A stretch of DNA of 64,000 nt from Longimicrobiales bacterium (lineage in GTDB: Bacteria; Gemmatimonadota; Gemmatimonadetes; Longimicrobiales; Gaopeijiaceae), in the NCBI GenBank assembly GCA_965202805.1, contig OZ241869.1, forward strand, positions 2,272,001 to 2,336,000, read 5' to 3'. A model generated the notes under the pieces. The model was not told the DNA's origin. It did not search any database and saw only the letters and a program-made list of their open reading frames with translations. A program made the position numbers and the translations under genes. Every line of letters begins with the position of its first letter. Within the stretch, counting starts at the first letter, position 1. Below, piece by piece: positions 1,388 through 34,335 of this stretch.

Positions 1388-4275
1388 GCGGCGACATGCT
1401 CATCATTCGAGGAGCGCGCGAGCACAACCTGCGCAACATCGACCTCGAGCTCCCCCGCGAGCGCATCGTCGTCATCACCGGTCTGTCAGGATCGGGGAAA
1501 TCCTCCCTCGCCTTCGACACCATCTATGCCGAGGGACAACGGCGTTACGTGGAATCGCTGTCCGCGTACGCCCGCCAGTTCCTGGGCCTGATGGAGAAGC
1601 CGGATGTCGACGCCATCGAGGGCCTCTCGCCGGCGATTTCCATCGAGCAGAAGACGGTGAACCGCAACCCGCGCTCGACGGTGGGCACGGTCACCGAAAT
1701 CTACGACTACCTGCGCCTGCTGTGGGCGCGCGCGGGCATCCCCCACTGCGCGGAGTGCGGCCGGCCGGTCCTGCGTCAGAGCGCCACCCAGATCGTCGAG
1801 CAGCTTCTGGAGCGGCAGCCGGGCAGCCAGGTCGAGGTCCTCGCCCCCCTGGTGCGTGGACGCAAGGGCGAGTTCCGCGAGCTGTTCGAGCGGGCGCGGC
1901 GCACCGGCTTCGTGCGCGCGCTCGTCGATGGCCAGGTATACGACCTCTCCCATCCTCCCGCGCTCAATCGGTACGAGAACCACGACATCGCCATCGTCGT
2001 AGACCGCCTCGCGGTGCGCGACTCCGACCGCGGCCGCCTCGCCGACTCGGTCGAGACCGCCCTGTCGACCGCCGAGGGCGTCGTTGGGATCCGGGTTCGC
2101 GGCGAAGACGACACCCGGCTCTTCAGCGAGCACTACGCCTGCGTGGAATGCGGCACCAGCCTGCCGGAACTGGAACCGCGCCAGTTCTCCTTCAACTCTC
2201 CGTTCGGAGCGTGCGAAGACTGCGGCGGGCTGGGCACGCGCCGGGAGGTCAACCCCCAGCTTCTGCTCGGCGACCCCAGCCTCTCGGTGATGGAGGGGGT
2301 GGTGCTCCCCTGGGGGGATCCAGCCGGGCACCTGCGCCGGTCGGTGATCCCCGGGCTGGCCGCCGCCTACGAGTTCGACCCGCGCGAGCCCTGGAACACC
2401 CTGGACCCGGAGGTCCATCAGGGCATCCTCCGGGGTTCGGCTCCCATGAAGATCCGCTTCCCCTACCGGTCGGGCGGCTCCGCGGGATACTACGAGGACG
2501 TGTGGGAGGGCGTCGTCGCGAGCATCGAGCGGCGCTACCGGGAGACCGGGTCGGACTACGTGCGCGGCCAGCTCGAGTCCTACATGTCGGTGCTGCCGTG
2601 CAAGGCGTGCGAGGGGACGCGCCTCGCCCCCCGCTCCCGCGCCGTTACCCTGGGCGGCCGCTCCATCGGCCAGGTGATCGAGCTGCCCATCTCGGAATGC
2701 CTGGCCTTCGTGCGCTCGCTCCCGGTAACCGGCCGCCTGCGCTCCGACTCCGTCGAGCAGGCCCCCGGCCCGCCGCTCCCGGCCGAAATCGCCGGACCGA
2801 TCCTGAAGGAGGTGGAAGACCGCCTGCGATTCCTGACCGCCGTGGGCCTCGACTACCTCAGCCTGGGCCGCTCGGCCGACACCCTCTCCGGGGGGGAGGC
2901 GCAGCGCATCCGCCTGGCGACCCAGATCGGCAGCGGCCTGGTGGGGGTGCTCTACATCCTGGACGAACCGTCGATCGGCCTTCATCCGCGCGACAACCGC
3001 GGCCTGCTCGCCACCCTCCGGTCGCTGCGCGACCTGGGCAACACCGTGCTGGTCGTGGAGCACGACGAAGACACCATCCTCGCCGCCGACCACGTCGTCG
3101 ACCTGGGTCCCGGGGCGGGACGCAAAGGGGGCGAGGTGGTGGCCGCGGGCACGGTGCAGGAGGTCGTCAACCATCCGCGCTCGCTCACCGGCGCGTACCT
3201 GCGCGGCGCCCGCGAGATTCCCGTGCCGCCGCGGCGGCGCCCCGCCGACCCCGAACGCCGGCTCGTGGTGGAGGGCGCACGCCAGCACAACCTCCGGGAC
3301 CTGGCGGTGGGGTTTCCCCTCGGGTGCTTCGTGGCGGTCACCGGGGTCAGCGGATCGGGCAAGTCCACCCTGGTGAACCATACCCTGTATCGCGCCCTGG
3401 CGCGCCGCTTCTACCGGTCGGTGGCCCTGCCCGGAGACCACGACCAGGTGCAGGGCGCCGAGCTGATCGACAAGGTCATCGAGGTGAACCAGGCGCCCAT
3501 CGGAAGAACGCCGCGCTCCAACCCCGCCACCTACACCGGTCTCTTCACCCCCATCCGCCAACTCTTCGCGAGCCTTCCCGAGTCGCAGGTGCGCGGCTAC
3601 GGCCCCGGCCGCTTCTCCTTCAACGTCAAGGGAGGCAGATGCGAGTCGTGCAAGGGCGACGGCCTGGTGAAGATCGAGATGCACTTCCTGCCGGACGTCT
3701 ACGTGCCCTGCGACGTATGCCGCGGCCAGCGCTACAACCGCGAGACCCTCGACATCTCCTACAGGGGCCGGAACATCGCCGAGGTTCTGGCGATGCCGGT
3801 TGCCGAGGCCCTCGAGTTCTTCGACCCCGTGCCCCGCGTTCGCAACCGCCTGCGGACGCTGGCGCAGGTGGGGCTCGGCTACGTCCGGCTGGGCCAGCCG
3901 GCGACGACCCTGTCGGGCGGCGAGGCACAGCGGGTCAAGCTGGCCACCGAGCTCTCCAAGCGCGCGACCGGAAGGACCCTGTACATCCTCGACGAACCCA
4001 CCACGGGGCTGCACTTCGAGGACGTGCGCGTCCTGCTGGAGGTGTTGCACCGCCTGGTGGACCGCGGCAACACGGTGGTGGTGATCGAGCACAACCTGCA
4101 CGTGATCAAGACCGCCGACTGGCTCATCGACCTCGGCCCGGAGGGGGGCGCGGGCGGAGGGCGGGTGGTCGCGGCCGGGACACCCGAGGAAGTCGCCGCC
4201 GACCCGACCTCCTACACGGGAGCTTTCCTGACGGATGTACTGCCGGGACGGGCCCGTGAGCGCCGGAGGGCGTAA
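1384..4275 (+). CDS. uvrA: Excinuclease ABC subunit A
   Basis: GAREHNL start, two Walker A motifs ([16 protein letters not shown]), two LSGGEAQR signatures, CxxC zinc fingers; ATG overlaps tamB stop (ATGA). Confidence 0.98.

Positions 4276-21765: not shown

Positions 21766-21769
<4 letters not shown>
20531..21769 (+). CDS. kbl: Glycine C-acetyltransferase (2-amino-3-ketobutyrate CoA ligase)
   Basis: [37 protein letters not shown] Lys in TLGKALG; follows threonine dehydrogenase. Confidence 0.88.
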
Positions 21770-23625
<1,856 letters not shown>

Positions 23626-23706
23626 GGGCTTTCGGCCGTGCACCGGCGCATCAATTGGACGATACGCCCGGCACGAGGAGTACCGAAGAGCGTGTGTCCG
23701 TAAAAC

Positions 23707-23735
23707 TACTTGTGGTTCTACAAGTAATATTGTAG
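23707..23735. promoter_or_regulatory. Overlapping inverted repeats (putative operator/enhancer) upstream of the sigma54 regulator
   Basis: TACTTGT(23707-13)/ACAAGTA(23720-26) and CTACAA(23718-23)-N6-TTGTAG(23730-35) in an AT-rich patch. Confidence 0.55.
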
Positions 23736-23744
23736 TCTGGGGAG

Positions 23745-25268
23745 ATGCCGAACCTCCTGATCAGTTGGGTGGGTCAAGCTGACCTGCGCGCACCACGCGA
23801 AAGCCCTTCCGCCGGTGTGGGACCCATCGCTCAAGCTCTCACTGCGCGCTCCTATGACGCGGCGGTGTTGATCGCGGACTACCCGAAGGAAGAGGTAGCT
23901 CCGTTCCTGGATTGGCTCCGGTCTCGGAGTGAGACGGTCGTTATCGTCTGTTACGAGCCGTTGCCGGGGGGACCAACCCACTTCGGCCAGATCCACGAGG
24001 CTGTGGTCCGCGTCGTATCCGAGGCTCTCGAGCACCACGGAGAGAACGCCGGGCTCAGCTTTCATCTAAGTCCCGGGACTCCGGCCATGGCGGCCGTCTG
24101 GATCATCCTGGCGAAGACGCGCTTTCCGGCGGAACTCATCGAGTCATCGCGTGAGCATGGCGTGCGGACAGCCTCCGTCCCCTTCGACATCTCCGCCGAG
24201 TTCATCCCGGACCTCTTACGAGAGCCCGACCGGCGTCTCCAGAGCCTGACCGCCGGACTTCCGCCAGAAGCCCCGGAATTCACCGACATCATGCATCGCA
24301 GCCAGGCCATGGCCCGCGTGATCGCCAAGGCGCGTCGGGTGGCACCGCGGTCGGTTCCGGTTCTGATCGAAGGTGAATCCGGTACGGGAAAGGAGCTGCT
24401 GGCGCGGGCCATCCACCGGGCGAGCCCCAGGCGGAGCAAACCGTTCAAGGCGGTCAACTGCGGCGCGATCCCGTCGGAACTGGTTGAATCCGAACTGTTC
24501 GGCCACGAGAAGGGCGCGTTCACGGGTGCCGACAAGGCGAGAATCGGCTACTTCGAAGCCTCTCATCACGGTACGCTGTTCCTTGATGAAGTCGGCGAGC
24601 TGCCGCTTCCCGCACAGGTCAAGCTTCTTCGGACGCTTCAGGACGGGAGCGTCCTGCGTGTCGGTTCAACGACGCCGCGCCGCGTTGATGTGCGAATCAT
24701 CGCGGCCACCAATCGGATCCTCGTCGACGAGATCGTCGCCGGACGATTCAGGGAAGATCTGTTCTACCGCCTGGCGGTGGCCGGACTCCAGCTTCCGCCC
24801 CTCAGGGAGAGACAGGGTGACCTGGGCCTTCTTCTGGATCGACTGCTTGAGCGTGTCAACGAGGAGCACGGGGAGCAACCCGGATACGAGCACAAGCAAT
24901 GTTCTGTTGGCGCAAGAAATGTTCTTCTCTCCCATCCCTGGCCGGGGAACGTGCGGGAGCTGCTGAATACGCTGCATCGGCTCGCGATCTGGACTCCGGG
25001 CGCGACGATCCGTCGTGAAGACGTGCGAGAGGCGTTGCTGCCGGTGATCGGCGACGGCGAGACACGCATCCTTGACCGACCGTTGGGCAACGGCCTGAAC
25101 CTCCGGGATTTGCTGGCGGACGTGGCCAGGCACTACCTGGCACGCGCACTCAATGAGACCCGGGGCAACAAGACGCGAGCGGCTCGCTTGTTGGGCCTTT
25201 CGAGCTACCAGACGTTGACCAACTGGCTCAAGAAGTACGAGGTGGACGGCGAGTGGCACGGGTCTTGA
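23745..25268 (+). CDS. Sigma54-dependent enhancer-binding protein with RtcR/CARF-like N-terminal domain
   Basis: Walker A GESGTGKE, intact GAFTGA (24513-24530), LFLDEVGE, FREDLFYRL, WPGNVREL, Fis HTH; N-terminus (LLISWVG..DL, HLSPGTPAMAAVW) is not a receiver domain and resembles RtcR-type sensors. Confidence 0.9.
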   Translation: MPNLLISWVGQADLRAPRESPSAGVGPIAQALTARSYDAAVLIADYPKEEVAPFLDWLRSRSETVVIVCYEPLPGGPTHFGQIHEAVVRVVSEALEHHGENAGLSFHLSPGTPAMAAVWIILAKTRFPAELIESSREHGVRTASVPFDISAEFIPDLLREPDRRLQSLTAGLPPEAPEFTDIMHRSQAMARVIAKARRVAPRSVPVLIEGESGTGKELLARAIHRASPRRSKPFKAVNCGAIPSELVESELFGHEKGAFTGADKARIGYFEASHHGTLFLDEVGELPLPAQVKLLRTLQDGSVLRVGSTTPRRVDVRIIAATNRILVDEIVAGRFREDLFYRLAVAGLQLPPLRERQGDLGLLLDRLLERVNEEHGEQPGYEHKQCSVGARNVLLSHPWPGNVRELLNTLHRLAIWTPGATIRREDVREALLPVIGDGETRILDRPLGNGLNLRDLLADVARHYLARALNETRGNKTRAARLLGLSSYQTLTNWLKKYEVDGEWHGS

Positions 25269-25269
25269 A
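25254..25269 (+). promoter_or_regulatory. Putative sigma54 (-24/-12) promoter
   Basis: TGGCACG-GGTC-TTGAA versus consensus TGGCACG-N4-TTGCW; exact spacing, about 58 bp upstream of the next gene. Confidence 0.7.
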
Positions 25270-25326
25270 CATGGGGACCGCCGGAGCACACCATCGTCCA
25301 CCCACAACCGGGAGCCTTGACATCCA

Positions 25327-28300
25327 GTGAAGCGATCTGAACTCGAATCCCGGGTGTCCGCGCTGCGGGATGCACACGGGGGGCACCAAGGCGGTTCTGC
25401 CGATGATGCTTACGGACCGTTCGTTGTTCCCCTCGCGGCGGCAATCCTGCTCCGGTGGGCGGAACACGCCGTGTCTCTCTCCCCGCGCTGGCGCGACCTT
25501 CGGGGACAGGAGTTGACCCGTTTCGTGGTGCAGGCACTTGACGCCGACCTGAAGGCTGACTTGGACCAAGAGGCACTGGATTGGTGGCTATTGTACATCG
25601 TTTTCGCGACCCACTACCTACATGGATCCCTTGCCGATTTCATCATAGACTGGGCTGTGGATTTAGATCTGGAGTCAGGTCGCAGGCGTGATGCGGCGAA
25701 CAATCCACTGGAGGGACTAATCGTCGGCTCAGCCAGCCATCTTCAACCAGGCAGAATCCTCTCCCCGGCCACGCCCAAGCCCGTCGCAAGGCTCATGGTC
25801 GATCTGGCGAATCCCCGCCCTGGAGAGCGCATTTATGATCCATGTTTCGGCCGCGGCGATCTGCTAACGGCGGCAGCCGGCAGACTCGCCGAACAGACCA
25901 GTCTCGTGCCGGAGAGCCTGGGAGATTCCAAGCAATTCTCTATTGGAGCCGGAACAGATGGTCCAGCGGTCGTGGTTGGGCTTGCCCGCATGGTTCTCGC
26001 CGGCATCGACGATCTGGGCTTCCAGTCATACGACGTGTTGAATCAGGCATCCGAGAGTGCGCCGTCTCCCGAACAGTTCGACTGCATTCTCTCCGCTCCT
26101 CCAGCGGGACGGAGGACGTGGGCGGGCGCCGCGGTCGACATCGAGACACAGGCCCTCCGGCACATGATGGCTTCTCTGCGTGAGGGCGGTCGAGCGGTCG
26201 TCGCCCTTCCCGAAGGCCTGCTGTTCAGGCGCGGCTTGGACCGCAAGGTCCGCCGGAAGCTTCTGTCCGACTTTCGGGTGAAAGGCGTGGTGTCGCTGCC
26301 GGAGGGGGCGTTCCAACCGTTCTCGAAGATCAGGAGAAGCCTGGTTCTCTTTCGCCGGGAGAAGCCCGCCCGGACGGTTCGGTTCCTCCAAGTGGAAGAA
26401 TGGCCGTCCTTTCGGCCCAACGACGCGCTTGCCCGCGAGCAAGCTCTGGAGACGGCGCGCACCGTCGCCGAAACGTTCAGGAATGGATCGTCGGACGACG
26501 ACGCGTGGGAGACACCGATTGCGAAGCTTGCGGAGCGCGGATGGGAATTAGTCGCGAAGAGAACGGGCGAAGAGAGTCTCTGCTATTCGCTCTCCGCTCT
26601 CGCCAATGAGAACGAGGGGTTCGAGGCACGACCACTCGGCGAAGTGGCGGAGATCTTCCTCGGTGTGCCCAATTGGAGCGGCACAGCTACGTCGGACAAG
26701 AATGATCCTTCCGTCGTCGCCGGCATCGTGCGTGCGGCGGACGTCGGGAAGCGACGCATCCGGAATCCGTCACGCTTCGTCACCGGCTCCCATGCAGCAA
26801 GAGTCCTTCTTGAGCATCGGTTACGGGTGGGAGACGTTCTGCTGAGTGTTTCCGGCACGGTCGGCAAGACCGGAGTCGTTTTCGAATCGTCCGATCTCGT
26901 CGGTGCGTTGGCTGCCCGCGGATTAGCCGTCATACGCCCTGGGCCGCAGGTGTCGCCGCTCTTTCTGAGACGCCTGCTGGCGTCCGAGACCTATCAGAAC
27001 TGGCTCCACGGGCATGCCCGAGGCGTATCGATCCAGCACCTCTCGGTCCAGGCCATCAGGCGTCTCCCTGTGCCCGTGCCTCGTTTGTCGATCCAAGAGC
27101 GTCTCCTTCGGCATGTATCCACACGCGACAGTGATGTACTCTCCAGATTCCGCCACATTCTTGGCGATGGCAGCTATTCGATAGATGTTTGGCTGCACGG
27201 CTCCCAAGTGCGGGCGGTACGTTCAGCTACCGATGCAGCTGACCGCCTAACACTCTTGGAGAAGACCGCGGACTCCCTCCAGGCGCTGCGGAATCAGGTG
27301 GTGCACGTTGACGGAAACGCGGAGCCGGGCCTGAATCGGTGGCTTCTGGCGCTCGCGGACTCGATGAGGACGTTCCAAGGTCTTAGCCACGTTCCCACCG
27401 GACCGGAGCGTGTGGCGATCCTCGATCGCGCGCAAGCGCGCATCGAGCGCATTCTGGCGGATCTCGTCAAGTCGTCTTCGCCAAATGCAGGCCCGGCGAG
27501 GAAGGCCACCCGCAGCATCTCCCGAATCGTTCGTTTGGAACGCGAGTCCATGCTGGAAAACGTGGAGATGGAACCGTTTGTCAGGCGGAGTTCGGTCCCG
27601 GCCGGGAAAGAAGCCGAAGTCCAGGTCTCGCTCAACAACCGGTCCCGTCTTGCCCTCCGCAACGTGTCGGTCTCGACCCGTCCGAATATCGGGGCTTCGC
27701 GCGTACCCTACCTGGCTGGTGAAAGGAAACTGAGTTTCCCTGTGCAAATTCCGGCAAGCGCGCCGGTGGGCAACTATCGGTTCCAGGTCCAGTGGCGAGC
27801 CGACCGGCTCGATGGCCAGCGGGTGCTCGGCGATGCTCCGCTCGCGGTCAGGGTCAGCGTAGCTCGAGAGACGGCTCCTCCGGGCGACCTCGGAACCAGC
27901 CCCTATATTGTCGGAAGCCCGATCGACCGGGACGAAATGTTCTTCGGTCGCGAGGACATCATCAACAAGATCCGCCGACAGCTTTCCACCCGCCACCGGG
28001 CCAACGTCGTCCTGCTGGAGGGCAACCGGAGGACGGGTAAGACCTCCATTCTCGGACGGCTACAGGCACCCGACGTGCTGCCAGGCTGGATCACGGTTAA
28101 CTGCTCGCTACAGGGAGGCGAGGGTCACGAAAGCAAGCCTGGATTGTCTACCAACGAGGTGTTCCGGCTAATGGCTCGTCATATCGGGTTGGCCGCTCAC
28201 GCCGCGGGGGTCCGCGTATGGTTACCCGACATGGATCCGCCCGACTCAAGGAAGCGGTTCAAGATCGCCTTCACCAAGGCCGTGCGGCAGGCATTCTCGG

Positions 28301-29151
28301 GTTCCCGACCCTTCGAGACGTTCGAACTCTTCCTACAGACCGTGATCGACACTGCAAAGCCTCGACGCATCCTCCTGATGCTCGACGAGTTCGACAAGCT
28401 GCAGGAGGGCATCGACAACGGCGTCACGAGCCCCCAGGTTCCCGAGAACATCCGCTATCTGTTGCACACCTATCCCGGCATATCCGCTGTACTGACCGGT
28501 TCCCGCCGTCTGAAGCGCCTTCGCGAGGAATACTGGTCCGCGCTGTTCGGACTCGGGCATCGTGTTGCCGTAAGCGAGCTTCGAGGGCGAGATGCGCGCC
28601 TGCTCGTAACTCGACCAGTGGAAGGACGACTCTCCTACGTGCCGGAGGCGAGAGACCGCGTGGTCAGTCTGTGCGCCCGGCACCCGTTCCTGATCCAATC
28701 CCTGTGCAACCGCATCTTCGACCGCGCCGCCGAGTCGGGCAGACGAGTCGTGACGGTCGGTGACGCGAACCGGGCCGCCAAGGAGATGGTGAGAGACAAC
28801 GAGCACTTCCGTACATTGTGGGACTACGCCGAAACCGAGCGGAAGAGATTTATTCTCGCATGGTGCCAGAGACTCCGAAGAGGACCGGATCCCGTTACTC
28901 TGAGCTTGCTTGAAACGAAACTCGAGGAATCAGGCGTCATCGTACCTCGCGGTCACCGTCTGGGAGACGATCTGGAGTTTCTCCGCGAACTCGAGCTCGT
29001 CAGGCTCGATAACCGGACGAGCGAGTCCGCGTACATGCTGGCGGTGCCATTGATGGGGATGTGGATCAAAGGCAGTATCGACTTTGAGAACCAGCGCCGG
29101 CGGGCGGTCCGCGAAGGCGAGGAACTGGATGATGGCGGTGAGGAATCATGA
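25327..29151 (+). CDS. Fusion protein: HsdM-like N6-methyltransferase fold (degenerate) + HsdS-like TRD + beta-sandwich + STAND/AAA ATPase
   Basis: TPKPVARLMV, IYDPCFGRGDLL, GRAVVALPEGLLFR, VVSLPEGAF (MTase); PLGEVAEI, LRVGDVLLSVSGTVGK, LPVPVPRLSIQER (TRD); SPYIVGSP..FFGRED, GNRRTGKT, LLMLDEFD (ATPase). Confidence 0.85.
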   Translation: MKRSELESRVSALRDAHGGHQGGSADDAYGPFVVPLAAAILLRWAEHAVSLSPRWRDLRGQELTRFVVQALDADLKADLDQEALDWWLLYIVFATHYLHGSLADFIIDWAVDLDLESGRRRDAANNPLEGLIVGSASHLQPGRILSPATPKPVARLMVDLANPRPGERIYDPCFGRGDLLTAAAGRLAEQTSLVPESLGDSKQFSIGAGTDGPAVVVGLARMVLAGIDDLGFQSYDVLNQASESAPSPEQFDCILSAPPAGRRTWAGAAVDIETQALRHMMASLREGGRAVVALPEGLLFRRGLDRKVRRKLLSDFRVKGVVSLPEGAFQPFSKIRRSLVLFRREKPARTVRFLQVEEWPSFRPNDALAREQALETARTVAETFRNGSSDDDAWETPIAKLAERGWELVAKRTGEESLCYSLSALANENEGFEARPLGEVAEIFLGVPNWSGTATSDKNDPSVVAGIVRAADVGKRRIRNPSRFVTGSHAARVLLEHRLRVGDVLLSVSGTVGKTGVVFESSDLVGALAARGLAVIRPGPQVSPLFLRRLLASETYQNWLHGHARGVSIQHLSVQAIRRLPVPVPRLSIQERLLRHVSTRDSDVLSRFRHILGDGSYSIDVWLHGSQVRAVRSATDAADRLTLLEKTADSLQALRNQVVHVDGNAEPGLNRWLLALADSMRTFQGLSHVPTGPERVAILDRAQARIERILADLVKSSSPNAGPARKATRSISRIVRLERESMLENVEMEPFVRRSSVPAGKEAEVQVSLNNRSRLALRNVSVSTRPNIGASRVPYLAGERKLSFPVQIPASAPVGNYRFQVQWRADRLDGQRVLGDAPLAVRVSVARETAPPGDLGTSPYIVGSPIDRDEMFFGREDIINKIRRQLSTRHRANVVLLEGNRRTGKTSILGRLQAPDVLPGWITVNCSLQGGEGHESKPGLSTNEVFRLMARHIGLAAHAAGVRVWLPDMDPPDSRKRFKIAFTKAVRQAFSGSRPFETFELFLQTVIDTAKPRRILLMLDEFDKLQEGIDNGVTSPQVPENIRYLLHTYPGISAVLTGSRRLKRLREEYWSALFGLGHRVAVSELRGRDARLLVTRPVEGRLSYVPEARDRVVSLCARHPFLIQSLCNRIFDRAAESGRRVVTVGDANRAAKEMVRDNEHFRTLWDYAETERKRFILAWCQRLRRGPDPVTLSLLETKLEESGVIVPRGHRLGDDLEFLRELELVRLDNRTSESAYMLAVPLMGMWIKGSIDFENQRRRAVREGEELDDGGEES

Positions 29152-30713
29152 ACGACCGTCCGTACCAGGTCCTGGGCGATGGCGTTCCCCGGATGCTCGG
29201 TCGCAAGCGCATCTTTCGCAAGCTTCTTGGGCATTTGCTCAAAAACACACCGGATCATGTATGCGTTGTGGGGCCAACGCTATTCGGTAAATCGGTTCTT
29301 CTGCATCACCTCAGTTCGCACTTGAAGAGCGAAGACGATCATTACCTCACCTCGGTATACTGGGATCTCCGACACGGAACGCCCAGAACGGACGCCGAGT
29401 TCAGGGAGCGTCTTGCACAACGAGTCAGAGTTGCGCTGAAACCGGTGCGTGCCGACCTCGCGGAGTACCTGGATCCCGAAGATGAAGATCCCTTCGAACT
29501 GCTCGATATCGCCTTCGAGGAAATGCAAGGTGAAGGCCTCCGCCTTCTCGCCGTGCTCGACGGATTCGATCATGTTCTTGGTGGCGGGACCATTACCAGG
29601 AATTTCTGGGACAGAATGCGCGTGCTCGCCCAGCGCGGAAGTCTTCGGCTCGTGACCGGGAGCCGAGGAAGACTCCGGGAGCTTTGCAAGAGCGAAGACT
29701 CCCGGACTTCGGACTTCTGGGAGATTTTCTTCGATACGCCGCTCCAGGTCGGTTGCTTCGAAGAAGACGACTGGGATGGTTTCCTGGAGCCGTTCGCATC
29801 GAACGGCGTTGACGTTGAGGAACCCGCACGAAAAGAGCTGGCGAACTGGACCGGAGGCGTCCCGATTCTCGCCGCTTCATTGGCACAAAGGTTAATGGAG
29901 GACAGTGCGGTCACCGACTTGGTGACAAAGCCTTTCGTAGACCGAGTAGCGGGTGCGATGGCCAATGACGCTCCCGAGTCCATCCGCCAACTGTGGGATG
30001 ATTGCCCAGTCGAAGTACAGTCCCTGTTGACGGATCTTGGCAGCGGAGAGATTCCGGTCGGCGAGGTGCCGCCTGATCGTATTCGCTTCCTCAAGAGCCG
30101 GGGCTTCGTTGAGACTTCAGGCGGAAAGCTGCGATCTGCCTGCCGGCTGATGAAGGAATTTGCCCGTCAGCGCCAAAGTGAAGTCACAACCCTTCGACGC
30201 CTATTCGGCGACGAGGATCGGTTTGAAGCAAACCTTCGAGGGTTGCTCGAACTTCGTTTGGAGGGCATCAAGAATCGAGTGGATCCGACATTGGCTGGCT
30301 ACGCACTGAAGGCGATCCGGGAACTACCCGAACCTGATCATGCGATCGTGTGGATGCGAAGCTTCTCCGAGACAGCACTTGACCTGATCTGGAATGCAGA
30401 GCTCGAGCGTGACGACTCACTGCCAGAGGCCTGGGAGACCAGTGGGATTGAATTCGACGAGCACGATCAACTGCCCGTGAGTCGCGGCAAGCAGTGTGGA
30501 ATCCTCCGCAAGGCGACCGGCTCGGCGAACACCCCCCGGGTTACCAGATTTCTGACGAAGCCAGCGTTCCTGTTGCTGGACCATCTGCACGCCGTTGGGG
30601 ACTTCGGACAGCACAGGGAAGGAGCAACGATATCCGTGCCAACAGCCGCCGCCTTTTGTCTGTCGGCGATCGAGCTTTGCGAGAGGCTGGCTTGCGATCT
30701 GCCGAGGAGGTAA
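29148..30713 (+). CDS. P-loop/STAND-like ATPase with possible C-terminal HEPN-like domain
   Basis: PY..LGR, Walker A GPTLFGKS, Walker B-like LAVLDGFD, WTGGVP helix; ATGA coupling to upstream gene. Confidence 0.8.
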   Translation: MNDRPYQVLGDGVPRMLGRKRIFRKLLGHLLKNTPDHVCVVGPTLFGKSVLLHHLSSHLKSEDDHYLTSVYWDLRHGTPRTDAEFRERLAQRVRVALKPVRADLAEYLDPEDEDPFELLDIAFEEMQGEGLRLLAVLDGFDHVLGGGTITRNFWDRMRVLAQRGSLRLVTGSRGRLRELCKSEDSRTSDFWEIFFDTPLQVGCFEEDDWDGFLEPFASNGVDVEEPARKELANWTGGVPILAASLAQRLMEDSAVTDLVTKPFVDRVAGAMANDAPESIRQLWDDCPVEVQSLLTDLGSGEIPVGEVPPDRIRFLKSRGFVETSGGKLRSACRLMKEFARQRQSEVTTLRRLFGDEDRFEANLRGLLELRLEGIKNRVDPTLAGYALKAIRELPEPDHAIVWMRSFSETALDLIWNAELERDDSLPEAWETSGIEFDEHDQLPVSRGKQCGILRKATGSANTPRVTRFLTKPAFLLLDHLHAVGDFGQHREGATISVPTAAAFCLSAIELCERLACDLPRR

Positions 30714-30792
30714 GGTGTCGGCAGCGCTCCGTACGATCTTGCCGTCAGCCCGCGCAACCTCAGCCCCCCGGACGCGATGGGGAGCCGGAGGT

Positions 30793-31248
30793 TCAGGCCA
30801 GCAGCGCCTCTCCCCTCCGGAGCGGATCCCGGATGCGCAGTTCCGGGAAGAGCATGAAGTCCCGGTCCCGGGACAGGAGAACCTCGACCCCGTGCGCGAC
30901 GCAGATCGCGGCGACCCGCGCGTCGTGCACCACGCCCCCGTGCACGCGCGGGCGCCGGATGAAGGGTCTCAGCGTGGCGGGAAAGTCGTCGGTTTCGCCG
31001 ATCAGGCGATTCGATGGCGACGCGGCCCATGCTTCCAACTGTCGCCACGCCCGGTCCGAGGTGCTCGCCTCCTCCTTCCGTATTCGGCGGTTGGTGACCA
31101 CGCTCAGGAACTCGAAGCAGCAGGGCCAGGGGATGGCCCACGGGTGGCGCCCCTCCGCCAGCCTTCGCATGATCTCCCGAGCGGTCGCGTGCACCCGCGA
31201 TTCCCGGCGGTGCGCTTAGACCAGCACGCTGGTGTCTACGGCGATCAC
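30793..31248 (-). pseudogene. vapC: VapC/PIN toxin with premature TAA stop
   Basis: VIAVDTSVLV*AHRRE (TAA at 31216-31218 where Y is expected), EFLSVVTN, VHDARVAAI, LLSRDRDF. Confidence 0.85.
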
Positions 31249-31434
31249 CGGCGTCGACGGGCCGGCGCCGATGATGACGGCCTGTCCCGGTCGTCGTAGA
31301 TGATGTCGCGCAGGTCCTGCCACGAGTAGTCTTCGAGCGGATCGCGAGCACCCGCGCGGCCGACGCTCAGATCGGGAAGCTCGTAGCGAGGAGGAGGTCT
31401 TGATGCGGCAAGCGCGAGGCGGAGGCCTGCCCAT
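31245..31434 (-). pseudogene. Truncated VapB-type antitoxin remnant
   Basis: C-terminal segment AGLRLALAA..YELPDLSVG..SWQDLRDIIY with its stop overlapping the vapC GTG; no in-frame start, DNA-binding N-terminus absent. Confidence 0.6.
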
Positions 31435-31461
31435 ATCCTATAATATGGGCAACCCATATCC
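31429..31461. promoter_or_regulatory. Alternating-palindrome operator containing TATAAT
   Basis: GCCCATAT-N6-ATATGGGC and ATATGGG-CAA-CCCATAT; TATAAT at 31439-31444 (+). Confidence 0.55.
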
Positions 31462-31484
31462 CGGTAATCCAAGGAGTTGACGCC

Positions 31485-32024
31485 GTGCCAAATGGAGGTT
31501 CGGACTGCTGCGGCACCTGTTGGTTCAACCGCGCAAACGGAGGGAGGATGGGAAGCTCCCGTCATGACGATTCCATCCCGAGCCATTGCGAGATCAGGGA
31601 TCTGGCGATCGAGGATCCCTTTTATACCTACTGCTCGAATCATCCGTACCGGATGCAACGGCGGGTCCCGGTGCCCCTGGGCCCGGTGTACGTCCATGTC
31701 GATGAGTCGTTCGAGCGCGACGGAGAGACCTACTACACGCACGGGCGCGAGATCTGGGTGCATGCGCCCGACACCGACGAGGTTCGCAGCCAACTCCTTC
31801 GACTCCTGGAGGAGCCCGGCAGCGCGTCCGATCACTACCCGTTCTACGGTGACGACCTGTTGGGAGTCGTCGTTGACGAACTCGAGAGACTCCGCGAGCC
31901 GCGTGCCGTCTCCATCCTGGAGCGCGTTGCGGAAGAGGTCCGGGGGCACGAGGAGGCCTCCGAAGGCGTTCGGGACGCGCTCGCGAGGATTCGCAAGGCG
32001 GTCGAGGCGCCTCGGGGCGGATGA
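31485..32024 (+). CDS. Cys-rich (putative Zn-binding) hypothetical protein with helical tail
   Basis: AAGGAG RBS, GTG start, CCGTCWFN...C...C..H pattern. Confidence 0.7.
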   Translation: MPNGGSDCCGTCWFNRANGGRMGSSRHDDSIPSHCEIRDLAIEDPFYTYCSNHPYRMQRRVPVPLGPVYVHVDESFERDGETYYTHGREIWVHAPDTDEVRSQLLRLLEEPGSASDHYPFYGDDLLGVVVDELERLREPRAVSILERVAEEVRGHEEASEGVRDALARIRKAVEAPRGG

Positions 32025-32037
32025 CCGGGAGGACCCT

Positions 32038-34335
32038 ATGACCGGTCTCCAATCGCAAGGAGAAGCCATGCTCAAGCCGACATCCGATACATACGGCCGG
32101 TGCGAACTTCCGACGCGCGCAACCCATTCCCGAGATGAGTTCGATGGGCAATCCCGGGATTTGCCCCGCCTGCGCGGCGGACTGTTGCTCATTCCCTTCG
32201 CGGTGCTGGGGCTCGCATGCGGGAGCCCCTATCCACCGCCGCCGGAAACCGCACGGGAGCCCGTCGTCGACACCCTGCACGGCGTCGTCTTCACGGACCC
32301 GTACCGCTGGCTGGAGGACCAGGACAGCCCGGAGACGCGGGCCTGGATCGCCGGGCAGAACGCGTATGCCGAGCAGATCGTGGGCGAGTCGGAGCTGCGC
32401 ACCGGGCTGGAGGCGCGCCTGCGCGAGCTGATGGAAGCGCCCGGGCCGGTGTACCCGCAGCGACAGGGTGAATTCGAGTACTTCTCCTTCCGGCGGGCCG
32501 AGCGCGAGGTGGGCGCGATCTACCGGCGGCCAGCGCCGGAGGAGCCCGATGACGGCCCGTTTGACGCGACTGCCGACTACGAGGTGGTGATCGACCCGCT
32601 GGATCTGCGGGCGGACGGCACCACCAGCGTCGCGATTCAGGCAATGGAATCCAATTCCAGCTGGACCTGGGCACCGGGCGTCGACCCGGCCGACACTGTC
32701 GGTATTCGTCCCCCCGGGCGCGCGCTGATGGCGTACTCGATCCGGGACGGCGGCCGCGACGAGGTGGAGATCCGGATCCGCGACCTCGTCACCGGCGAAG
32801 ACCTTCCCGACCGGCTGCCGACGGCGCTCTACAGCAGCGTCTCCTTTGCCGACGGCGGAAGCGTCCTCTACTACGTCCGCCGATCCCGCCGGACGGGCCC
32901 TCGCGTCTACCGCCACGTCGTCGGCACCGACATCTCGGAGGATGTCGAGCTGTTCGGCGCGGGCATCGGGCCCACCGCCTTCGTCAACGCCTCAAGGGCG
33001 GGGGACGACCACCTCATCTACACGGTGCAGCACGGCTGGGCGCGCACCGACGTCTACCTTCACGACGTGCGGGCAGGCACGGAACCGGTTCCGCTGGTGG
33101 TCGGGGCGCCCGCCCGCTTCCGGACCCGCTGGATGGAGGGCGAGATCTACCTGCTCACCAACCTGGATGCGCCCCTGAACCGGGTGGTGGCCGTGAGGCC
33201 GGAGGCCCCGGCTCCAGGCCAGTGGCGCGAGGTCATCCCGGAGGGCGAGGATCTGCTGACGGGATATCAGTTCATCGGCGGCGACATCTTCGCCGACTAT
33301 CTGCACGACGTGAGCAGCCGCATCGTGCGGTACGGCCCGGACGGCGCGCTGAAGGGCGAGATCCCCATCCCCGAGCATCATGTGGCGTCGCTGCGCGGCC
33401 ATGGAGAGGGCGTTGCCCTGCTGTCCCTCACTTCGCTGCTCACGCCCCAGACCGTGCTCACACTCGACCTCGAGACGCTGGAGACGGAGGAATGGCGACC
33501 CTCCCCCGTGCCCTTCGACGGAAGCGCCTTCGAGATGAAGCAGGTGTGGTACACCTCCGCGGACGGGACCCAGGCGCCGATGTACCTGGCGCATCGCCGG
33601 GGACTCGAGCTGAACGGCAAGATCCCTGCCCTGCTTTACGGCTACGGCGGATTCAACGTGAGCCTGCTGCCGCGGTTCGATGCCCGCGCCGCCGTCTGGA
33701 TGGAGCAGGGCGGCGTGTATGCGATGGCGACGCTGCGCGGAGGAGGCGAGTTCGGAGAGGAGTGGCACCGGGACGGGATGCTTGAGAACAAGCCCAACGT
33801 CTTCGCCGACTTCATCGCCGCCGCCGAGTGGCTGGTCGAGAACGGCTACACCAACCCGGACAGGCTCGCCATCCGCGGCGCGAGCAACGGCGGGCTGCTG
33901 GTGGCGAGCGCCCTGACGCAGCGGCCGGATCTCTTCCGGGCCGTCTTCTGCGGCCTCCCCGACCTGGACATGGTGCGCTTCTACCAGTTCACCGAGACCA
34001 ACAACATGCCGGCGCTGCTCGAGTACGGGAACGCGGCCATCGCGGAGGAGTTCGAGGTGATCCGCACCTTCTCGCCCTACCAGAACGTGCGCGACGGGGT
34101 GGACTACCCGGCAGTGATGCTCACGCAGGGCGATCTGGACACGCGCGTGCCGCCGCTCCAGGCCCGCAAGATGGCGGCGCGGTTACAGGCGGCCACCGGT
34201 TCCGGATTGCCGGTGATCCTCGACTACGACGAGCGCACCGGCCACGCCGGCGGCCGCACCTTCAGCCGCAACGTGCGCAACGCGGCCATGGAACTGGCGT
34301 TCCTGCTGCAGCAGCTGGGGGCGGGGGAGGGATAG
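32038..34335 (+). CDS. Prolyl oligopeptidase (S9A), lipoprotein
   Basis: Lipobox LGLAC, DPYRWLED, YGYGGF, catalytic GASNGG, DTRV, GH; start uncertain. Confidence 0.92.
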   Translation: MTGLQSQGEAMLKPTSDTYGRCELPTRATHSRDEFDGQSRDLPRLRGGLLLIPFAVLGLACGSPYPPPPETAREPVVDTLHGVVFTDPYRWLEDQDSPETRAWIAGQNAYAEQIVGESELRTGLEARLRELMEAPGPVYPQRQGEFEYFSFRRAEREVGAIYRRPAPEEPDDGPFDATADYEVVIDPLDLRADGTTSVAIQAMESNSSWTWAPGVDPADTVGIRPPGRALMAYSIRDGGRDEVEIRIRDLVTGEDLPDRLPTALYSSVSFADGGSVLYYVRRSRRTGPRVYRHVVGTDISEDVELFGAGIGPTAFVNASRAGDDHLIYTVQHGWARTDVYLHDVRAGTEPVPLVVGAPARFRTRWMEGEIYLLTNLDAPLNRVVAVRPEAPAPGQWREVIPEGEDLLTGYQFIGGDIFADYLHDVSSRIVRYGPDGALKGEIPIPEHHVASLRGHGEGVALLSLTSLLTPQTVLTLDLETLETEEWRPSPVPFDGSAFEMKQVWYTSADGTQAPMYLAHRRGLELNGKIPALLYGYGGFNVSLLPRFDARAAVWMEQGGVYAMATLRGGGEFGEEWHRDGMLENKPNVFADFIAAAEWLVENGYTNPDRLAIRGASNGGLLVASALTQRPDLFRAVFCGLPDLDMVRFYQFTETNNMPALLEYGNAAIAEEFEVIRTFSPYQNVRDGVDYPAVMLTQGDLDTRVPPLQARKMAARLQAATGSGLPVILDYDERTGHAGGRTFSRNVRNAAMELAFLLQQLGAGEG

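Follow-up and report, generated by a model that had tools for sequence, protein, structure and literature searches.

We analysed a stretch of 64,000 nucleotides (nt) from a Longimicrobiales bacterium (contig OZ241869.1, positions 2,272,001 to 2,336,000; hereafter the window), in which three co-directional genes occupy 23745-30713 between glnS (21766-23625) and a prolyl-oligopeptidase gene. They encode an RtcR-like activator of sigma-54 transcription, a fusion of a methylase-like domain, a target recognition domain (TRD) and a STAND ATPase (here called F), and a second STAND ATPase (here called A). A first-pass annotation, made from the letters alone, had described an AT-richer three-gene block right after glnS, with an RtcR-like enhancer-binding protein that carries GAFTGA and a non-receiver sensor, a sigma-54-like promoter at the 3' end of its gene, a 1274-residue HsdM/HsdS/ATPase fusion, a translationally coupled second ATPase and no HsdR or recognizable nuclease. 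All of these features withstood the analysis below. We propose, with moderate confidence and from comparison of sequences, that the three genes form a mobile and inducible conflict system, probably directed against phages, whose constant core is a two-protein STAND switch.

The island and its predicted sigma-54 control

The three-gene block has a G+C content of 57-65%, compared with ~67-75% in its flanks and ~70% in the window as a whole. It forms an accessory island of ~7.1 kb with approximate limits at 23607..30768. At the same site in a congeneric genome (G140), the 3' end of glnS is followed by ~50 bp, by sequence matching the window from 30768 onward and by the peptidase gene, and the three genes are missing; relative to G140, they are a 7.1-kb indel. 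Sampling of 301 genomes of the phylum turned up the A gene in three, its own genome counted; among nine other species of the genus, one has it. Scans with Pfam, PADLOC and NCBIfam revealed no HsdR or recognizable nuclease inside the block. The genome does carry a separate type I restriction-modification (R-M) locus outside the window, at G000:C1:620433-629300 (N6_Mtase at 620433, Methylase_S at 625405 and HSDR_N at 626498).

The first gene (23745..25268, plus strand) encodes a regulator of 507 amino acids (aa). It consists of a CARF domain (~aa 1-165), an AAA+ domain (182-348) with Walker A at 210-217 and GAFTGA at 257-262, a lid (354-431) and a Fis-type helix-turn-helix (HTH; 457-498), and it matches the Pfam families Sigma54_activat (PF00158, E 1.1e-68), AAA_lid_14 and HTH_8 (E 2.1e-8). 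The PADLOC model RtcR_PspF2--CARF_AAA_HTH aligns with residues 3-500 (E 1.8e-196), and because this match spans the full length of the protein, we assign its N-terminal non-receiver sensor to the CARF domains. The CARF4 and CARF1 models match residues 56-126, and a comparison of the CARF region with PDB sequences returned no match. NCBIfam RtcR (NF038308) matches the regulator at E 4.6e-99 and 332.7 bits, under the 650-bit cut-off of that family. No other enhancer-binding protein of the genome bears a CARF domain, as the five other matches align from residue 165 or later. The genome, which is 98% complete, contains rpoN and has no match to RtcB.

A sigma-54 type -24/-12 element, TGGCAC-N5-TTGAA, lies at 25254..25269 on the plus strand (TGGCACGGGTCTTGAA) and overlaps the last codons and the stop codon of the regulator gene. 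Within the window alone, such a pattern is not significant, with 25 matches at up to two mismatches versus 19.3 expected. Across loci, 24/35 regulator genes (window included; 23/34 related loci) have the strict pattern at their 3' end, against a background of 48 matches in 2.64 Mb (0.011 per 600 nt). Nine of the 11 loci missing the strict pattern have near-matches at the same place. Several loci have the element entirely behind the regulator stop codon, which indicates that its conservation is not merely coding constraint. Judged by this comparison, the predicted sigma-54 promoter at the 3' end of the regulator gene is real, conserved in position across phyla and oriented to read into F and A. 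A sigma-70 promoter scan of 23500-31600 gave 0 sites.

An inverted repeat, CTTGT-N6-ACAAG, is present ~20 bp upstream of the regulator start codon (23709..23724, plus strand). It is conserved among three Longimicrobiales loci although their flanks diverge, and six other loci from three phyla (L001, L002, L004, L008, L019 and L020) have an exact copy 20-24 bp ahead of the RtcR-like start. At up to one mismatch, the 64-kb window holds two matches (one exact, at 23709) versus 0.52 expected. We consider the repeat a candidate operator or activator-binding site. One exact copy also occurs inside the separate type I R-M locus of the same genome (L074:3138-3153), which may be chance.

The F-A pair and its natural variants

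The second gene (25327..29151, plus strand) encodes F, with 1274 aa from a GTG start. The public gene call is shorter (1118 aa; P0004), but homology of the N-terminal region in relatives supports the longer open reading frame (ORF) from GTG 25327, and a GGGAG Shine-Dalgarno-like site lies 10-16 nt upstream of this codon. The protein comprises an N-terminal region (aa 1-110), an HsdM-like Rossmann domain (140-415), a single TRD (430-600), a four-helix bundle (635-745), an immunoglobulin (Ig)-like sandwich (746-846) and a STAND ATPase (860-1274). Its motifs are motif I DPCFGRG (171-177), a degenerate motif IV SAPPAG (256-261), Walker A (899-907) and Walker B (1016-1023). Database matches follow this layout: N6_Mtase (E 1.5e-23, aa 149-399), PADLOC Specificity_I (E 1.4e-14, 437-599), AAA_16 (872-1027) and, weakly, nSTAND6. 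Residues 600-870, modelled at a pLDDT of 85, form the four-helix bundle and the Ig-like sandwich and have generic structural matches only, the best being 4kty_A (Z 10.3, root-mean-square deviation [rmsd] 2.4, 91 aligned residues) and 2rld_A (Z 9.2, rmsd 3.2, 105 aligned). No repeat domain or known effector was found in F, which ends after the STAND and winged-helix module.

The methylase domain of F has lost its catalytic residue in most of the family. Position 257 of catalytic motif IV, which reads (N/D/S)PP(F/Y/W) in active enzymes, is A or V in 45/56 aligned members, and the motif mostly reads (A/V)PPW, retaining both prolines and the aromatic residue (W260 in 47/56). The residues of motif I (G175 in 55/56, D171 in 52/56) and motif II (E209 in 51/56) are kept. 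The clade of the window is more degenerate, with SAPPAG at motif IV and G in place of E209. The genuine HsdM proteins encoded next to F carry NPPY in 19/23 cases. From these alignments, the F methylase is probably catalytically dead, a pseudo-enzyme, as the first-pass annotation had supposed. The public annotation is misleading for this family: 990 F-like proteins were found at E<=1e-3 among 8000 candidates scored, and their only public label is “N-6 DNA methylase.” The best 120 of the 990 are mostly full-length fusions of ~1200-1430 aa, with some of 825-1118 aa, and the F STAND module alone matches 1323 proteins at E<=1e-20 (clusters at 90% identity).

The single TRD of F also behaves differently from the specificity subunits encoded beside it. 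Over 91 locus pairs, mean identity is 0.69 for HsdM and 0.29 for HsdS, and 0.50 for the F methylase and 0.42 for the F TRD; HsdR averages 0.74 across phyla. The divergence of the F TRD thus tracks that of its methylase domain, unlike the hypervariable adjoining HsdS, which suggests that F reads a fixed ligand and not a variable specificity.

The third gene (29148..30713, plus strand) encodes A, of 521 aa, and its ATG overlaps the F stop codon as ATGA. The ATPase spans aa 1-350, with Walker A at 42-49, Walker B at 136-141 and GGVP at 236-239, and is followed by a helical C-terminal domain at 379-521. Pfam matches to A are weak (AAA_22, AAA_16 and NACHT), but 47 A homologues searched at E<=1 match NACHT (39/47), NB-ARC (25/47) and nSTAND2 (22/47). 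In the predicted structure (pLDDT 89.6), aa 1-350 resemble STAND and ORC/Cdc6 proteins (2qen_A: Z 18.5, rmsd 4.6, 307 aligned), plant nucleotide-binding leucine-rich repeat (NLR) receptors, Avs3 and BrxC (9zdx_A: Z 13.6, rmsd 4.5, 260 aligned). The first-pass assignment of the ATPases to the STAND type agrees with these similarities. A search of PDB sequences with the A profile produced P-loop noise only (best E 0.0012), and a Foldseek comparison of A with viral structures returned generic AAA+ matches only.

The C-terminal domain of A is strongly conserved at two positions, as R404 and H489 are invariant in 54/54 sequences; the conserved motif at 484-489 is G[DN]FGQH. A profile of this domain finds 412 representatives in 1.84 billion proteins. 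Among the best 150 of these, 86 are ~495-560 aa long with the domain at the C terminus, 63 are shorter (probably fragments) and one has 1205 aa. An ESM Atlas search with the domain was uninformative, yielding unnamed clusters at a best score of 0.79. We take the DUF4145 family (pfam13643) to be HEPN-like, with a GNxxxH-type motif that resembles the G[DN]FGQH of A. Supplementary File 4 of PMC4012209 lists several RtcR-like-headed type I loci in which HsdR has an N-terminal pfam13643.

We based gene-order counts on 66 related genomic loci from about a dozen phyla, which include Gemmatimonadota, Acidobacteriota, Planctomycetota, Latescibacterota, Binatia, Gammaproteobacteria, Spirochaetia, Cyanobacteria, Myxococcota, Verrucomicrobiota, Chloroflexota and others. 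In 64/66 loci, F is followed immediately by a gene for an A homologue, and both exceptions end at a contig edge. As far as the sequences tell, F and A are always neighbours, and in the window they are translationally coupled. A co-oriented RtcR-like gene is found upstream in 31/66 loci, either adjacent, as in the window, or ~5.5 kb away. In 22/66 loci, hsdM, mostly within a full hsdR-hsdM-hsdS set, stands between the regulator and the pair in one co-directional string. At least 17 loci, the window included, have RtcR-F-A without hsdR, hsdM or hsdS in the string, and the remaining loci carry hsdRMS-F-A without a regulator or, in about a dozen cases, F-A alone. One locus (L050:2514-15107) has the pair tandemly duplicated, in the order RtcR-like, F, A, F, A.

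The ATPase modules of F and A are paralogues (BLASTP E 8e-6). A complex model of F residues 856-1270 with A reached an ipSAE of 0.81, against 0.00 for the best control; the ipSAE mark was reached by 116/157 solved complexes and 2/215 mismatched pairs, counts that are approximate here, since our own alignments were used. At least 95% of contacts agree between runs, the partner pLDDT is at least 81, and the modelled interface joins both nucleotide-binding faces. This outcome may partly reflect memory or likeness, as AAA+ interfaces are common among solved structures. As a prediction, the model supports binding between F and A.

Natural variants suggest how the parts divide their tasks. In two loci (L054:7391-11227 and L056:7337-11224), the HsdM-TRD head is swapped for a DEAD/Helicase_C (superfamily 2 helicase) head in front of the same STAND module, and an A homologue follows. 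The 1205-aa protein P0225 combines FHA, N6_Mtase (motif IV SPPF) and TRD with the C-terminal domain of A and has no STAND Pfam match; by its domain content, it appears to be a Rosetta-stone link between the head of F and the tail of A. The helicase-headed forms and P0225 together suggest an arrangement in which the head acts as sensor, the STAND pair as switch and the C-terminal domain of A as output. Two proteins of ~1700 aa (P0138 and P0140) were ruled out as F-A fusions, since in them the F-type STAND module is duplicated in tandem.

Surroundings of relatives and described systems

Known defence genes lie near many relatives, and this, with the co-localization of the pair, is in line with the defence operon put forward by the first-pass annotation. 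Among 43 hand-picked flanking ORFs of relatives, 19 match PADLOC models at E<=1e-10, one of them being only the Specificity_I of the locus's own R-M system. The other matches include TmtA, IetS, LmuB, MkoA, AbiEii, Cas12k and PD-Lambda-3_B. Giant TmtA (Tiamat)-like proteins are encoded directly downstream of A at L007:15612-20933 (a full-length match, E 0), L017:16266-20813, L018:16401-20354 and L064:13597-18045. A cyanobacterial F-A pair (L025:4094-17813) is flanked by IetS, a GmrSD_N protein and a Cas12k gene, in a dense neighbourhood of defence and CRISPR-associated transposon genes. In six loci, mostly from Spirochaetia, the pair is closely followed by an RNA ligase gene (PF09414 with the PHA02142 oligonucleotide-binding fold) on the opposite strand (L022:18257-19309, minus strand; L043, L045, L046, L048 and L049). 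This adjoining RNA ligase may tie the F-A pair to RNA breakage and repair.

The closest likeness of the regulator is to that of the RtcR-RtcBA operon of E. coli and Salmonella, with which it shares a CARF domain, an NtrC-type AAA+ domain with GAFTGA, an HTH and sigma-54 dependence. It differs in scoring below the NCBIfam RtcR cut-off, in the lack of RtcB in its genome and in its unrelated cargo. In E. coli, rtcR is divergent from its target operon, whereas the regulator described here is co-directional with its target.

RtcR-like regulators in defence settings have themselves been described. Passages of Makarova et al. (2014; PMC4012209) report PspF-like/RtcR-like CARF regulators beside R-M systems, and the discussion in passages of Bell et al. 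(2024; PMC11090510) extends to defence superoperons headed by RtcR homologues. These systems have the same regulator family and the same logic, in which a CARF sensor acts through sigma-54 on downstream R-M or defence genes. For Desulfococcus oleovorans, Supplementary File 4 of PMC4012209 gives PspF-like, HsdR, HsdM and HsdS genes followed by a 4089-nt gene with pfam02384, pfam01420 and pfam13191. This gene is an F fusion, listed without comment in the passages of PMC4012209 that we draw on. In the corresponding parts of both papers, the F-A pair is not analysed, and the CoCoNuT (McrBC-like) cargo discussed there is missing from the present locus. What we add to those parts of PMC4012209 and PMC11090510 is the placement of the promoter in the 3' end of the regulator gene and a minimal form with three genes. 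Full-text searches found no description of the F-A pair in the literature, bioRxiv supplements being outside their scope, and neither PADLOC 2.0 nor NCBIfam has a model for it. The first-pass claim of an undescribed system can thus be kept for the F-A cargo pair, but not for RtcR-like regulators beside R-M systems or for the fusion gene as a listed entry, as far as the cited passages of the two papers go.

The head of F resembles the type I methyltransferase core HsdM2-HsdS1 (e.g., EcoKI) in that a TRD comes after an N6_Mtase fold that includes motif I. It departs from this core by fusing M and a single, non-hypervariable TRD in one chain, whereas HsdS has two hypervariable TRDs with conserved helices between them. 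It also carries (A/V)PPW or SAPPAG instead of NPPF/Y, and a four-helix bundle, an Ig-like domain and a STAND ATPase are added at the C-terminal side. The first-pass annotation had proposed that R-M parts were repurposed rather than kept as a classical type I system. The probably dead methylase is consistent with this view, but hsdM shares the string in 22/66 loci, so that the pair is often an add-on to type I R-M and not its replacement.

Other systems share single traits with the module. As in Ronin and PrrC-EcoprrI, R-M parts would serve here as a sensing platform for a suicide effector. PrrC is an ATPase linked to an RNase and is held by a type I enzyme. The difference is that the methylase here forms one chain with a STAND switch. 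Neither a RonA-like small membrane protein nor a PrrC-type ABC ATPase turned up, although no search directed at RonA was made; in the window, no ORF is annotated between F and A or after them. Avs and other bacterial NLR-like STAND proteins are comparable in their NB-ARC-like ATPase core, which includes a winged helix, and in the modularity of their sensor head. They differ from the present pair, which has two paralogous ATPases, an N-terminal R-M-derived sensor, no TPR or other repeat sensor and a putative output on the partner. The Avs analogy of the first-pass annotation is therefore a loose one: it holds for the STAND core, but there is no C-terminal repeat sensor and no recognized N-terminal effector, and the ATPases are two. 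BREX likewise has a methylase-TRD protein (PglX) and ORC/Cdc6-like ATPases (BrxC/BrxB), but PglZ, BrxA and BrxL are absent here and the F methylase is degenerate. None of PglZ, BrxL and BrxA was seen among the conserved neighbours or in flank scans, which gave one BrxH/DrmD-like helicase, in L053 only. Likeness to MADS is limited to weak NCBIfam matches of F to mad2 (methylase; 41.6 bits versus a cut-off of 720) and mad5 (S subunit; 27.4 versus 400), which fall far below the cut-offs, and the other genes of the mad1-mad8 set are not present.

Downstream of the island, no gene is assignable between A and the peptidase domains (window 30713-32200), a segment with 88% identity to L002 and partial conservation in G140. 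The 952-aa peptidase ORF (31477-34335) probably has a later true start, because its Pfam domains begin only at residue 414. No similarity links the small ORFs that follow A in the window and in six relatives, and these were rejected as a fourth gene of the module. The sole tRNA gene of the window, for tRNA-Arg (CCG), lies far from the island at 3447-3535 on the minus strand.

Interpretation of the module

In the reading that we favour, an RNA-damage-type signal would bind the CARF domain of the regulator and switch on sigma-54 transcription; by analogy with RtcR, this signal may be RNA ends with a 2',3'-cyclic phosphate. The non-methylating HsdM-TRD head of F would then read a fixed nucleic-acid feature of the invader, for which modified or otherwise foreign DNA is the likeliest candidate. 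Plain unmodified DNA is disfavoured as a target, since self DNA would be left unprotected in the minimal loci, which lack a gene for a cognate active methylase. Ligand binding would drive ATP-dependent assembly of F with A, and the output would come from the HEPN-like helical domain at the C terminus of A, most likely as an RNase that arrests the cell. The products of such an RNase could in turn act on the CARF domain of the regulator as feedback. Where hsdRMS shares the operon, the pair would form a second layer behind classical restriction.

Several observations weigh against this proposal. The sole specific structural match of A residues 379-521 is the HEPN protein 2hsb_A, at a Z of 11.9 (rmsd 2.5, 115/126 aligned) that lies within the range that helical bundles reach by chance. 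The HEPN-defining Rx4-6H motif is missing from A, as G484 occupies the Arg position in 52/54 sequences and R404 lies on another helix. In F, a HEPN motif candidate, the Rx4H-like LRNQVVH (aa 654-660), was rejected since it is not conserved in a 49-sequence alignment. No Pfam family matches the C-terminal domain in 47 A homologues even at E<=1, A has no match in NCBIfam, and no nuclease or other effector is recognizable by sequence in F or A. In PADLOC, no model other than the generic MTase_I and Specificity_I matches either protein. The pseudo-enzyme assignment meets the ~7-9 of 56 F proteins that keep N, D or S at motif IV, and the retained S-adenosylmethionine motifs could reflect a different catalytic activity and not the absence of one. 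On the side of induction, the -24/-12 element of the window has one mismatch to the consensus, with GA instead of GC at -12, and about half of the F-A loci have no RtcR-like gene within the fetched DNA, so induction by such a regulator is not universal. As for mobility and context, the island ends have no convincing flanking direct repeats, target-site duplication or terminal repeats, the window has no integrase at the island, and the immediate neighbours are housekeeping genes. The 43 flanking ORFs of relatives were also hand-picked, without a matched control.

The main rival keeps the switch but changes what the head detects. Here the dead HsdM-TRD head would be an integrated decoy, or guard, that baits DNA-mimic anti-restriction proteins of the Ocr/ArdA type, from phages or plasmids, and triggers the F-A switch and abortive infection, much as in Ronin or PrrC-EcoprrI but by way of NLR-like ATPases. 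We regard this as possible, although clearly less probable than nucleic-acid sensing. It would explain why the catalytic residue is gone and the methylase and TRD framework retained, and a TRD that does not diversify like the adjoining HsdS fits a fixed ligand and removes the problem of telling self from non-self. The pair also stands directly behind hsdM, mostly in a full hsdRMS set, in 22/66 loci, and the present genome has its separate type I locus. A precedent exists in Ronin, in which, according to passages of Silas et al. (2023; bioRxiv 10.1101/2023.04.06.535777), HsdMS with RonA senses ArdA/Ocr independently of methylation. However, a head that can be exchanged for a DEAD-box helicase is more suggestive of a nucleic-acid sensor than of bait for mimics, a type I system is lacking within 10 kb of many loci, and the F methylase is just ~28-31% identical to the adjoining HsdM. 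In its fullest form, which we offer a shade more tentatively still, F would be a bacterial NLR with an integrated decoy: disarming of restriction would trigger a resistosome-like F-A pair and its RNase, and the resulting RNA ends would drive the CARF sensor, so that expression of the pair rises along with that of the linked type I system.

It is unlikely that F and A are accessory subunits of type I restriction, with F replacing or joining the M2S core and recruiting or modulating HsdR, A serving as a loader or regulator, and no immune output of their own. Such modulation could mean restriction alleviation, an extra fixed specificity or protection against autoimmunity. The tightly packed, co-directional hsdR-hsdM-hsdS-F-A strings under one sigma-54 promoter would suit this arrangement, as would an HsdM-like body in F that could contact HsdR. 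HsdR and HsdM are unusually conserved at their mean identities of 0.74 and 0.69, as if the whole cassette travels together. The at least 17 RtcR-F-A loci without hsdR, hsdM or hsdS and the dozen or so with F-A alone are hard to reconcile with it, and the helicase-headed variants and the STAND-less P0225 fit a system of sensor and output better than an HsdR adaptor.

Still less probable is a nuclease-free exclusion resembling BREX, in which F and A, loaded onto foreign DNA, would keep it from being replicated or transcribed and the C-terminal domain of A would be structural. No nuclease was recognized in F or A, the A ATPase resembles ORC/Cdc6 and BrxC (9zdx_A), and BREX likewise joins a methylase-TRD protein with STAND/ORC-like ATPases in the passages of PMC12839542 that describe it. 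Yet the loci are without PglZ, BrxL and BrxA, PglX is an active methylase and F has lost the catalytic residue, and the similarity to BrxC is no better than that to many other AAA+ proteins. Least probable of all is a non-immune role, either in the stress response to RNA or DNA damage or as an epigenetic reader, with the RtcR-like sensor controlling the module instead of the missing Rtc repair operon: RtcR NF038308 as the nearest curated family of the regulator (though below cut-off), the lack of RtcB, the RNA ligase gene beside the pair in six loci and the housekeeping neighbours in the window would fit it, but the patchy distribution (3/301 genomes), the indel between congeners, the frequent linkage to R-M and other defence genes and the STAND architecture speak against it.

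If the favoured reading of an inducible conflict system with a two-protein STAND switch is true, the module would be a widespread candidate for an immune system, as more than 1300 clusters (90% identity) match its STAND module and its loci come from about a dozen phyla. It would unite CARF/sigma-54 induction of defence, a restriction part that serves as a pseudo-enzyme reader or bait, and a hetero-paired STAND switch. The module would also offer a tractable case for the layering of an abortive response behind type I restriction, for a dead methylase as a pattern-recognition head and for the ligand that is sensed by R-M-associated RtcR-like CARF domains.

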